Both the position numbers and the translations under genes were made by a program. Positions 27,752-30,142 of a stretch of 32,000 bases of DNA are shown piece by piece; within the stretch, counting starts at the first letter, position 1, and each line of letters starts with the position of its first letter. Origin of the DNA: Bdellovibrionales bacterium (GTDB lineage Bacteria > Bdellovibrionota > Bdellovibrionia > Bdellovibrionales > UBA1609); assembly GCA_965247685.1 (NCBI GenBank), contig OZ252021.1:600001-632000 (forward strand), in the 5' to 3' direction. Below the pieces are notes generated by a model, which worked only from the letters and a program-made list of their open reading frames with translations, searched no databases and was not told the DNA's origin.

Positions 27752-30142
27752 ATGTACTTTTTAAAACAAATCTTTAAAGTGTCTTTTCTATTGATTTTTT
27801 TAAGCTTTGGTTTGTTCGCACAAACTAATGAAGAAGACACAGAAGCAGGTTCTCCTGCAAATTGTCCTTCTTGTGAGGATAATTCTCCTTTAATACAATT
27901 AACCAAGGATATACTGGGGGTTCCAAAAAGACTCTTCATAAATGAGTTTTCTTGGCTAAAGGATACGTTGTTGAGTCCACATACAAAAGGAAAAGCTAAG
28001 ATGAACACCTGTGATGTAATATATTCGACACGTAATTTCATAAAATCATCACTAATACCATTATCTCTATCTGATTACTGGGCTCAAGAGATGATAGGAG
28101 CGGATCTTTTAAGAGAAGAGTTAGAAAAAGTTCCTCCTCCTAAAACAAAGAATTTTATTGCTGTTTTTGACACTTCGACGAACAATCACAACGTTCATGT
28201 GAAGAATTTAATTTCTGATGAAGGCACTCAAGCTATTTTACCAGAATTAAAAGACCAAATAGTTGATGTTGAAACAAAGTATTCTAGTCAGGATAGAGAA
28301 GCGGCTGAGCGTTTCCTCCGACGGTGGGCTGTACCTTCTTTTATTAATAATTCGATGAGTTGGGTTTCGCGAACCACCTATGATGCTTATAAATCCTTAT
28401 CTCCACCTTCTGTGATAGTGACTGCCAGTGGTAATGAATATCCTATAGGTGTAGAGCAAATAAAAAGTGAAGCTTCAAAGGAGTTTTCAGCTATTCTTGT
28501 GGGAAGCTTTTCTCCAACTGGTCGTGTGAGCGCATTTTCTTCATCTGGAGAAGAAGTGCATATTCTAGCTCCTTCTGATCATTTTCTCACATCTGCTGAT
28601 GATCAAGGGAAGTATAGGGAATTTGCAGGCACCAGTGGGGCTGCTCCTTTAGTGACAGGTAGTTTAGCAGGATTTGAATGGCTTTCTGGTTATCATCCCA
28701 CAGCCAAAGAATCCAAAAGACTTTTGGAAAAAACAGCGCTTCCTACACTCGAGTCCTTCGAGAAACCAAGAAGAAACGGGGTAGGTTTGTTAAATACCTA
28801 TAAGTTAGGAATGGTAGCTAAACGTTTAAGAAAAAAATGCAAAAACAAAAAGTCGTCTTGTTTTAAGAAGGAGATTGAAAATAATGAGAACTATAGATTT
28901 CAAGTGGATCCAAATTTAGAGAAGGAATTGACTAGAGTCTTTCCTTCTTGTGCTATGAAAAATGAATCTGAACCACAGGAGAAGGTAGTTTCATCCAGCT
29001 GTGAAGATCAGAAGAAAGTATTTAAGCAATTAAGAAAAGCAAGTCTCCTTACTTCTTCTGAACCTGCTAGGAAGAAATACTTAGATAGTTTAAGTTGTAT
29101 CTATGAAGAGAAAGGATTTAGTCAGAATGCAAAAATTTTAAAACGTTTAGCTAAAGCTACTTGCATTGAAGCTGCACTAGAACAGCAAAGCTTCAATGGA
29201 TTTTTCGATTTTAATTCTTGTATGTACCTTCGCCTGGATTTAGTGAGGGGAGGTGATCGAGGTATTCGGTTATTGCAGGATTTGGAACAAGATCCAGATT
29301 TTAATGTTGAAACAAAAAAAGAAATTGCTAATCTGGCGAATGTGATGAGAGACGATCGAGGCTTTGAGTGGTTGCAGAAATTGGCACAAGATCCAGATTC
29401 TAATGCTAAAACAAAAAAAGAAATTGCTTATCAAGCGCGGATGATGGGAGGAGATCGAGGCATTGAGTTGTTTCAAATATTGGCACAAGATTCAGATCCT
29501 GATGTTAGATTACAAGTTGTTACGGAAGCAATTCAATTGGAAGGCGATCGAGGCTTTGAGATATTGCGAATGATGGCACAAGATTCAAGTGTTGATGTTA
29601 GAAAAAAAATTCTGTCTCAAATGTGGAGGATGGAAGGTGAGCGAGGCTTGGAGTGGTTGAAACTATGGGTAGAAGATCCAGATCCTGATATTAAAAAAAA
29701 GGTTGCTTTTTACGCGCAGTATATGGGAGGAGATCGAGGCTTTGAGATATTAGAAAAATTGGCACAAGATTCAGATCCTGATATTAAAAAAAAGGTTGCT
29801 TTTTACGCGCAGTATATGGGAGGAGATCGAGGCTTTGAGATATTAGAAAAATTGGCACAAGATTCAGATCCTGATGTTAAAAAACTGGTTGCTTATTACG
29901 CGAAGGAGATGGGAGGAGAGAGAGGCTTTAAGTTGTTGCAAATATTGGCGAAAGATTCAGATCCTGATGTTAGAAGCACAGTTGCTTATTACGCGCAGAA
30001 GATGGGAGGTGATCTAGGTATTGAATTGTTGAGACCATTGATAGAAGATCCAGATCCTGATGTTAGAAGAATGGCTGCTTATTATGCGAAGAAGATGGGA
30101 GGCAAGGGCTTAGAGTTGTTAATAAGAGAAGATGACAAATGA
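27752..30142 (+). CDS. Secreted subtilase (S8)-like protein with 4-Cys module and ~10 HEAT/PBS-lyase-like repeats (family copy C, longest)
   Basis: 796-aa ORF with a signal peptide (…FLSFGLFA/QT). S8 motifs appear in canonical order: IAVFDT (Asp), HNVHVKNLI (cf. HGTHVAG), SFINNS (cf. INMSLG), VTASGNEY (cf. AAGN), AFSSSGEEVHILAPS (cf. SFSSVGPELDVMAPG) and GTSGAAPLVTGSLAG (cf. GTSMASPHVAG). A Cys module and 31-aa repeats (DPDPDV+..VAYYA..MGG.RG.E.L..LA) follow. Confidence 0.85.
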   Translation: MYFLKQIFKVSFLLIFLSFGLFAQTNEEDTEAGSPANCPSCEDNSPLIQLTKDILGVPKRLFINEFSWLKDTLLSPHTKGKAKMNTCDVIYSTRNFIKSSLIPLSLSDYWAQEMIGADLLREELEKVPPPKTKNFIAVFDTSTNNHNVHVKNLISDEGTQAILPELKDQIVDVETKYSSQDREAAERFLRRWAVPSFINNSMSWVSRTTYDAYKSLSPPSVIVTASGNEYPIGVEQIKSEASKEFSAILVGSFSPTGRVSAFSSSGEEVHILAPSDHFLTSADDQGKYREFAGTSGAAPLVTGSLAGFEWLSGYHPTAKESKRLLEKTALPTLESFEKPRRNGVGLLNTYKLGMVAKRLRKKCKNKKSSCFKKEIENNENYRFQVDPNLEKELTRVFPSCAMKNESEPQEKVVSSSCEDQKKVFKQLRKASLLTSSEPARKKYLDSLSCIYEEKGFSQNAKILKRLAKATCIEAALEQQSFNGFFDFNSCMYLRLDLVRGGDRGIRLLQDLEQDPDFNVETKKEIANLANVMRDDRGFEWLQKLAQDPDSNAKTKKEIAYQARMMGGDRGIELFQILAQDSDPDVRLQVVTEAIQLEGDRGFEILRMMAQDSSVDVRKKILSQMWRMEGERGLEWLKLWVEDPDPDIKKKVAFYAQYMGGDRGFEILEKLAQDSDPDIKKKVAFYAQYMGGDRGFEILEKLAQDSDPDVKKLVAYYAKEMGGERGFKLLQILAKDSDPDVRSTVAYYAQKMGGDLGIELLRPLIEDPDPDVRRMAAYYAKKMGGKGLELLIREDDK
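29243..30139 (+). repeat. In-frame 93-nt (31-aa) HEAT-like repeat array, ~10 units
   Basis: Periodic GDRGFE(I/L)L…DPD(P/S)DV(K/R)…YYA..MGG units can be read from the translation. Divergence is higher in the first units and low in the last five. Confidence 0.85.
29681..29866 (+). repeat. Perfect 2 x 93-nt tandem duplication within the HEAT array
   Basis: 29681-29773 and 29774-29866 are identical (DPDIKKKVAFYAQYMGGDRGFEILEKLAQDS twice). Each unit contains an A8 run. Confidence 0.95.

Follow-up and report, generated by a model that had tools for sequence, protein, structure and literature searches.

The gene at positions 27752..30142 (+) of the stretch shown above, a window of 32,000 nucleotides of contig OZ252021.1 (assembly GCA_965247685.1, Bdellovibrionales bacterium), encodes a subtilase of peptidase family S8 whose candidate catalytic Asp and His are only 6 residues apart and which is joined to a solenoid of HEAT repeats. 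The open reading frame (ORF) comprises 796 amino acids (aa) and a stop codon according to the ORF list and a codon check, and the order of its parts is a signal peptide, a disordered linker, the S8 subtilase domain, a helical Cys module and about ten HEAT repeats. In a database search with aa 1-469 the identical protein (P0001) was among the matches, and at least 290 relatives were returned. The results support an S8 subfamily that is divergent and restricted to one lineage, with an Asp-His connection cut to a minimum, a Cys module of a novel kind, tails of HEAT repeats, and parts that can be detached or split. This gene is not alone in its architecture, and what is new is a subfamily with a trimmed core within the known S8 kind. 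With regard to function, a probability of about 0.55 is assigned to the view that the protein would be a Sec-exported, active subtilase with a prodomain provided in trans and with the HEAT array as an exosite for targets of prey or host.

The catalytic domain and its Asp-His connection

The S8 catalytic domain was assigned to aa 105-352 (28064..28807, on the + strand as all features of this gene), its end being set at NGVGLLN, which was matched to YGKGLIN of subtilisin BPN' by hhalign. The Pfam profile Peptidase_S8 (PF00082) was matched above its gathering threshold with an E value of 9.6e-11 and 42 bits against a cut-off of 21.8 bits. A model of aa 25-500 was generated with AlphaFold2 (AF2) from the family alignment and reached a mean predicted local distance difference test score (pLDDT) of 87. 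Over the catalytic domain, the turn between D140 and H146 (D-x5-H) included, the means of 10-residue blocks were 94-99. When this model was compared with the PDB by Foldseek, subtilisins were the top matches (E value 2e-11, about 285 columns of chains of 269-275 residues, target-normalised template modelling (TM) score of 0.70), so that the subtilisin alpha/beta fold is predicted for a core with pLDDT values above 94. The homology to family S8, which had been suggested in a preliminary description made from the letters of the stretch, is thus upheld by the profile and by the predicted structure, the latter with one fewer listed core strand.

The catalytic residues were found in the order Asp-His-Ser, together with the oxyanion-hole Asn, in conserved motifs. 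The candidate catalytic Asp, D140 (codon at 28169..28171), is part of IAVFDT and forms the C-terminal end of a strand (aa 136-140, IAVFD; 112-116 in model numbering), which is followed by two residues and then by a helix (aa 143-154; 119-130 in model numbering). The candidate catalytic His, H146 (28187..28189), is located in the first turn of this helix, TNNHNVHVKNLI. N228 of ASGN (28433..28435) was identified as the oxyanion-hole Asn, and the candidate nucleophile S295 of GTSGAAP (28634..28636) is placed where a long helix (269-288 in model numbering) has its N-terminus. In the alignment of 119 sequences D140 is conserved in 107/110, H146 in 108/110 and N228 as well as S295 in 117/119 cases, and this conservation of at least 97% at each of the four positions argues for a working enzyme. 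The register of Asn and Ser was taken from the hhalign comparison with BPN', in whose established numbering the counterparts are N155 (AAGNEG) and S221 (GTSMASP), while that of Asp and His was derived from motif, conservation and position in the model. By phmmer against the PDB, query residue 214 corresponds to BPN' residue 141, and query residues 139-336 were matched to residues 56-260 of subtilisin DY, the alignment itself not being displayed. If this stretch is ungapped, H146 would fall on residue 63 of the subtilisin DY chain, which we take to be its catalytic His.

According to the preliminary description all S8 landmarks can be aligned to subtilisin in order. This was found to hold for the ASGN and Ser boxes by conservation and hhalign and for the Asp and His boxes by motif, conservation and position in the model, but not for SFINNS (aa 196-201) as the oxyanion site, which was rejected because the alignment puts the oxyanion Asn at N228. 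In our reading, which relies on motif resemblance and spacing for a stretch aligned by none of the tools, SFINNS may be the counterpart of INMSLG (122-127) in BPN'. Two further candidates were discarded: H149, which shares the motif HNVHVK with H146, is variable across the family alignment, and D156 (in NLISDEG), considered as catalytic Asp, lies just beyond the C-terminal end of the His helix, a position that would be better suited to a role in a calcium site. The PatA/PatG cyanobactin protease family (TIGR03895, 25 bits against a cut-off of 421) and the mycosin family (TIGR03921, 33.5 bits against 279) were likewise rejected, these scores reflecting generic S8 similarity only.

The distance of 6 residues between Asp and His was already noted in the preliminary description and stands. 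It is the mode of the family, being found in 75 of 112 scorable proteins within a range of 4-24, and is therefore a family character and not a peculiarity of a single copy. In classical subtilisins Asp and His are separated by about 30 (30-40) residues including strand e2, a spacing that is typical of S8 without being part of its definition, and the value for BPN' is 32. The distance from H146 to N228 is 82 residues compared with 91 in BPN' (9 shorter), and that from N228 to S295 is 67 compared with 66, so that drastic shortening is confined to the Asp-His segment; the earlier claim that the His-to-Asn segment is shortened as well did not hold, since this segment is barely shorter. Residues 33-58 of subtilisin hold the edge strand e2 (45-50) and Asp41, a ligand of calcium site A. 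As Asp32 and His64 of subtilisin are in spatial contact, a short turn in place of this excursion is geometrically plausible, and it would plausibly remove the edge strand and not a central strand. Eight strands of at least 3 residues are present in the catalytic domain of the AF2 model, compared with nine strands (e1-e9) in the BPN' core. By sequence order we read them as e1 and e3-e9, and the missing strand would be e2.

Catalysis by D140, H146 and S295 with N228 on a core lacking e2 is considered probable in view of the conservation and the model. The opposite view would be that of a pseudo-protease, in which the trimmed core is catalytically dead and the protein serves as a binding scaffold only, much as PCSK9, once autoprocessed, functions mainly through binding. 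The unprecedented 6-residue Asp-His gap, combined with the loss of a core strand, might indeed not permit a working triad, and the N-lobe is too divergent for detection by sequence. This view is nevertheless regarded as highly improbable, because Asp, His, Asn and Ser are at least 97% conserved among relatives that are only 40-60% identical overall, which would be unexpected without catalysis, and furthermore the GTSGxxP and SGN boxes are canonical and the AF2 model is very confident around the D-x5-H turn.

Prodomain, Cys module and HEAT array

The N-terminus of the protein consists of a predicted Sec signal peptide (aa 1-24, MYFLKQIFKVSFLLIFLSFGLFAQ; 27752..27823) with a hydrophobic character (Kyte-Doolittle 2.6), 96% identity to a paralog and a putative cleavage site, and of a linker (aa 25-104; 27824..28063) that is modelled with low confidence (pLDDT below 50 over most of its length) and contains a TEAGSP..CPSC motif as well as C87, which is present in 103/104 sequences. 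The signal peptide leads directly into this linker, and no prodomain is found in cis. An extra N-terminal domain upstream of the same linker was detected in 67 of 162 full-length relatives, while 95 of the 162 are without a fused N-domain. In the fused relative P0074 the TEAGSP motif comes after the prodomain.

A stand-alone gene of 212 aa (30388..31026, +), beginning 245 bp downstream of the protease gene on the same strand, is the sole copy of the N-domain within the window. The product has a hydrophobic N-terminus, a low-complexity (RE)n linker and an I9-like N-domain (about 30715-31023), and its homology to the fused N-domains was established by BLASTP (1e-12 to P0005 and 5e-8 to P0026) and by phmmer, which gave values down to 3e-17 against 36 relatives. 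An AF2 model of P0074 (781 aa, pLDDT 88, predicted TM score 0.86) contains an N-domain of the order beta-alpha-beta-beta-alpha-beta (E49-57, H63-74, E79-84, E89-99, H100-110 and E116-124, pLDDT about 97), and as a whole this model was matched best in the PDB by unautoprocessed pro-subtilisin E (3whi, 451 columns), with Pro-Tk-subtilisin, PvSUB1, EpiP and fervidolysin among the further matches. A pro-subtilisin-like fold N-terminal of the protease is thus predicted for the P0074 domain, to which the product of ORF 30388-31026 is homologous. The Pfam scans of the ORF and the N-domains gave one weak Fervidolysin_NPro-like match (E 0.08).

On the strength of this predicted fold, ORF 30388-31026 is taken to encode a detached prodomain. 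Subtilisin propeptides that act in trans are established in vitro, and the product would act in trans on the protease. Separate N-domain ORFs adjoining protease genes were found at no fewer than eight other loci, and this recurrence gives the separation into two genes the look of a stable condition. No terminator-like site was detected between the protease gene and ORF 30388-31026 and one was detected at 31147, which is weak evidence, and a promoter scan performed no better than on shuffled sequence. The preliminary description is confirmed both in the lack of an N-terminal I9 prodomain in the protease and in the presence of an I9-like protein encoded at the locus, the latter through the downstream ORF, which is homologous to the N-domain that many relatives carry in fused form. 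The prodomain-like ORF also contains a microsatellite, (AAGAGA)x16.5 at 30615-30714, which encodes an Arg-Glu run in the linker ahead of the I9-like domain.

Downstream of the protease domain a helical module (aa 353-500; 28808..29251) is modelled with high pLDDT as entirely helical. Cys residues of the protein are located at positions 38, 41, 87, 363, 370, 400, 417, 449, 471 and 490, and C363, C370, C400, C417 and C449 of the module as well as C87 upstream of it are near-invariant in the family alignment; the module of four conserved Cys described earlier is therefore present after the protease, but with five near-invariant Cys. No Pfam family was matched by aa 353-500, and in the search of the family profile against the PDB only chains of HEAT type and subtilisin chains were listed. 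Disulfides are likely in this module of an exported protein.

The remaining part (aa 501-796; 29252..30139) is a solenoid of the HEAT_2/alphaRep-like type, in which nine repeats of 31-33 aa follow a partial first one and two neighbouring repeats are almost identical. Pfam HEAT_2 (PF13646; E value 1.9e-27, 95.8 bits against 27.7) and HEAT (PF02985; 1.5e-13, 50 bits against 23.5) were matched above their thresholds, alphaRep chains of the PDB were matched by phmmer at E values down to 5e-21, and Tandem Repeats Finder reported units of 93-99 nt in about 10 copies (29255-30102). With profile matches and a period of about 31 aa in agreement, the about ten HEAT-like repeats given in the preliminary description were verified, and the domain and repeat features of the ORF are real and far past chance. 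An identity as NblB or phycobilisome lyase was rejected (NF045915, 57.8 bits against a cut-off of 300 bits), the repeat type alone being shared.

The paralog P0002 (22221..24149, +; 642 aa), identified by the ORF list, Pfam and the database search, has the same architecture with about 5 HEAT repeats, compared with about 10 in the protein at 27752..30142. Identity between both proteins decreases from 96% in the signal peptide to 82% in the S8 domain, with 69% for the Cys module and the lowest value, 47%, for the HEAT array, and at the DNA level it is 87-88% for the protease regions and 60-72% for the repeats. According to precomputed Pfam annotation, HEAT-type matches are present in at least 51 of the best 120 relatives, and other relatives carry different C-terminal tails such as the Cys-rich C-termini of P0100 and P0120. 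The C-terminal tail is the variable, exchangeable part of the protein, which would fit a role in specificity or targeting.

Distribution, split relatives and proposed function

An exhaustive HMMER scan of 1.84 billion cluster representatives (clusters of 50% identity) with E-value limits of 1e-30, 1e-10 and 1e-3 yielded 283, 624 and only 947 of them, respectively, and the family is a discrete, divergent S8 clade. A genome scan yielded 55 related loci, 53 of which belong to metagenome-assembled genomes (MAGs) of Bdellovibrionota. These are MAGs of Bdellovibrionales with chromosomes of 1.4-2.5 Mb, of Bacteriovoracaceae and of Oligoflexia. Sponges are the source of several of the bins and coral skeletons of others (IP30b_bin.7), the naming of the latter being in agreement with the coral bins of PMC9868349. 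GatB encoded in the window shares 83-84% identity with proteins on contigs of 1.1-1.4 Mb and has its nearest named relatives in Bdellovibrionales MAGs (67% identity). Up to six loci are present in a single genome and tandem paralogs occur, for example a pair of S8-HEAT proteins of 901 and 793 aa at 5182-10382 of locus L057. An ankyrin-repeat gene (7536-8075) and an IS1595 transposase (8725-9362) were observed near the family member at locus L056.

The few named members of the family bear the label 'S8/S53 family peptidase' only. In the literature searches neither the family nor any S8-HEAT protein was found to be described, and HEAT repeats are not mentioned in a 2008 survey of prokaryotic serine-protease architectures. 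The preliminary description was thus right that the architecture is not known from a characterised enzyme as far as these searches reach; as to its proviso that the architecture might prove to be common and annotated, the architecture is common, with 283 or more clusters (50% identity), inside a single lineage, and its names are the generic S8/S53 ones only.

Two adjacent genes share the catalytic domain between them in 14 or more related loci, which come from 10 or more genomes including a short-read assembly (L010, L012, L013, L014, L016, L017, L018, L019, L021, L024, L030, L035, L041 and L045, at locus positions of about 7300-10300; also L056 at 3046-5362). The break always occurs at one position of the profile, corresponding to about aa 189 of the window protein and just ahead of the PSFINNS strand. 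Gene 1 of these pairs encodes the prodomain together with the Asp/His part, and in several loci its signal peptide can be recognised. Gene 2 has a start Met of its own and in most cases a hydrophobic segment resembling a signal peptide, after which come the Asn/Ser part and the Cys module. Stand-alone C-fragments make up 21 of the 213 retrieved proteins, 18 of the 21 having a start like a signal peptide, and at L056 the two gene calls (320 aa and 453 aa) overlap by 8 nt. Sequencing frameshifts were considered as the cause of the two-ORF relatives and rejected. Most N-fragments have a conserved Cys close to their end ('..A[EK]x[KR]C..'), and the C-fragments have another one (P0116-P0195; 'QC[KR]A..L-PSFIN'). 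Both flank a long insertion at the break site in the single-chain relatives P0100, P0120 and P0072, which suggests a disulfide clamp that may link the two chains where the protein is split. Both the long insertion and the flanking Cys pair are absent from the window protein.

For the window protein and its prodomain we infer the following course. The protease would be exported by the Sec pathway, and its folding and transient inhibition would be brought about by the I9-like protein in trans, which probably serves the protease as well as its paralog. In the core about 26 residues between Asp32 and His64 would be replaced by a turn of 5 residues, so that strand 1 ending with D140 runs into the His helix at H146 and a triad is formed, with S295 and the oxyanion N228 in canonical places. 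The helical Cys module, with its five near-invariant Cys probably disulfide-bonded, would form a stalk joining the protease to the HEAT solenoid, the part that would diversify between paralogs. Whether the solenoid selects protein targets of prey or host as an exosite is given somewhat less than even chances, judging from the variation of the tails. A broader and rather doubtful proposal is that the window protein is the single-chain form of an undescribed subtilase subfamily with a D-x5-H core devoid of e2 and the Asp41 segment, whose members repeatedly split into two genes and reassemble outside the cytoplasm, probably by an inter-chain disulfide, and whose HEAT arrays act as evolvable target selectors ('programmable' proteases) of host- or prey-associated Bdellovibrionales.

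The distribution also bears on another explanation, according to which an active protease for housekeeping or maturation would use its HEAT array to dock proteins of its own envelope or its own secreted proteins, as a scaffold for processing or quality control. The signal peptide ensures export only as far as the periplasm, no secretion system was linked to the family in the loci inspected, and bacterial proteins of HEAT_2 type such as NblB, the best NCBIfam match although far under its cut-off, act on endogenous complexes. However, up to six loci, some of them in tandem, are present in genomes of 1.3-2.5 Mb, the rapid divergence and changing copy number of the HEAT arrays fit a diversifying, outward-facing function better than housekeeping, and the genome scan did not find the family outside Bdellovibrionota (53 of 55 loci being from MAGs of this phylum). 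A housekeeping role is accordingly regarded as unlikely.

Several observations speak against an exported, active protease with a prodomain in trans and a target-selecting HEAT array. Pfam, the family profile searched against the PDB, and hhalign align the C-lobe only, the PF00082 match being limited to aa 212-337 (profile positions 140-280 of 288), and the N-lobe (aa 100-220) on its own gave chance matches only among the PDB sequences, so that the Asp/His lobe is assigned from the resemblance of its motifs, from conservation and from the AF2 model. Pfam I9 (PF05922) was matched neither by ORF 30388-31026 nor by 23 N-domains, a profile of the N-domain found no propeptide in the PDB, and the I9 nature of the ORF depends on the predicted fold of a relative with 45% identity. 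The HEAT array could equally serve as an anchor or a regulator. Finally, the locus is recombining, with a chimeric truncated copy and fragment-bearing ORFs, and under these circumstances the loss of the cis prodomain could be a sign of decay.

The chimeric copy at 24228..25112 (+; 294 aa) is a DNA mosaic with 97% identity to the 5' end of the protease gene at 27752..30142, 99% to the middle of the paralog at 22221-24149 and 98% to the 3' end of the protease gene and its downstream region, a pattern that suggests recent gene conversion or recombination between the copies. It has no Ser box, the GTSGAAP motif being absent, and is probably a recombination remnant. From such a locus, which in addition contains two ORFs bearing protease fragments and a prodomain ORF with a 16-unit AAGAGA microsatellite, and from a cluster look-up that did not find the exact protein in the database, it might be argued that the copy at 27752..30142 is itself decaying, i.e. 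that its cis prodomain was lost in a recombination event, that the protein no longer folds and that only the fused relatives are functional. We regard this as quite improbable, as the frame of 796 aa is intact and all conserved residues are present, 95 of the 162 full-length relatives are likewise without a fused N-domain, and N-domain ORFs adjoin protease genes separately at eight or more other loci. A functional protease served by the separate prodomain is preferred.

Neighbouring features and known systems

Three ORFs between the chimeric copy and the protease gene (25231-26016, 26178-26777 and 26960-27544, +) have a common lipoprotein-like N-terminus (…LLLSHCS…), and two of them hold a copy of protease aa 322-457 (approximately), i.e. 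the end of the S8 domain and the first half of the Cys module. The fragment-bearing ORFs are matched in other genomes by proteases alone and therefore look like lineage-specific products of fusion or recombination. In the paralog at 22221-24149 a 78-nt tandem duplication (22275-22428, 97% identical) doubles the segment 'TNEEDTEAGSPANCPSCEN' just past the signal peptide. In a different part of the window the fusion gene nadD-rsfS (11007-11981) has its RsfS half doubled by a 99%-identical direct repeat (8382 to about 8990 and 10957 to about 11565). The two repeat copies flank a gene of the Fic/DOC family (9436-10518, -), which looks like an insertion with duplication of the target region. The ORF at 11989-12459 (-; 156 aa) contains the Obg N-terminal (GTP1_OBG) domain only, no GTPase domain being present in frame, and is thus a split or truncated obg.

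Subtilisins are the textbook model for protein folding, prodomain-assisted maturation and enzyme engineering. If the 6-residue Asp-His link works, if the edge strand is absent and if some members of the family are two exported chains, this natural and strongly conserved family would show how far the subtilisin fold can be reduced and at which points it can be cut, with direct use for protease design and split-enzyme tools. A multi-copy, fast-diversifying protease-HEAT family confined to Bdellovibrionales with small genomes is a plausible effector repertoire of an unstudied predatory or parasitic lifestyle, and the HEAT arrays would be a handle for finding the targets of the proteases.

The window protein resembles the Bacillus subtilisins (subtilisin E and BPN'; pro-forms 3whi and 1scj) in the alpha/beta fold, the order Asp-His-Ser, the oxyanion Asn and the GTSxxxP box, and the N-domain and protease of the fused relative together match the unprocessed pro-enzyme of pro-subtilisin. 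In contrast to the Bacillus subtilisins, the Asp-His distance is 6 instead of 32, one fewer strand is listed (read as e2), the segment with D41, the ligand of calcium site A, is gone, the N-lobe is not detectable by sequence, a Cys module and a HEAT array are added and the prodomain has a gene of its own. An engineered calcium-independent subtilisin with a deletion of residues 75-83 (1suc), which is among the Foldseek matches, demonstrates that the core tolerates removal of a calcium-site loop; it differs in that its deletion is artificial and concerns another and shorter loop, and in that it retains both strand e2 and an Asp-His spacing of 32 residues.

Bdellovibrio bacteriovorus HD100 has 15 S8 genes (PMC2605481), and its exported set is thought to serve predation. 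The likeness consists in an expanded exported set of S8 proteases within the same phylum; HEAT is not mentioned in the survey PMC2605481, and the only match of the genome loci labelled Bdellovibrio is an uncultured MAG with 31% identity. As regards the C-terminal part, the alphaRep and HEAT_2 proteins (3ltj; NblB) are alike in helix-turn-helix repeats of 31 aa with the signature D-x-D-x-x-V-R...A...G, and alphaRep chains matched the relative P0074 with about 30% identity and a target-normalised TM score of 0.8. We know of no natural HEAT_2 protein that is fused to a protease. The eukaryotic PCSK9 is composed of a prodomain, an S8 domain with normal Asp-His spacing and a Cys-rich C-terminal binding domain, and is mainly non-catalytic. 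The C-terminal parts of PCSK9 and of the window protein are not homologous, and the likeness of both systems lies in the tripartite organization, in which an I9-like prodomain and a subtilase are combined with a non-catalytic domain at the C-terminus that has conserved Cys and mediates protein contacts.

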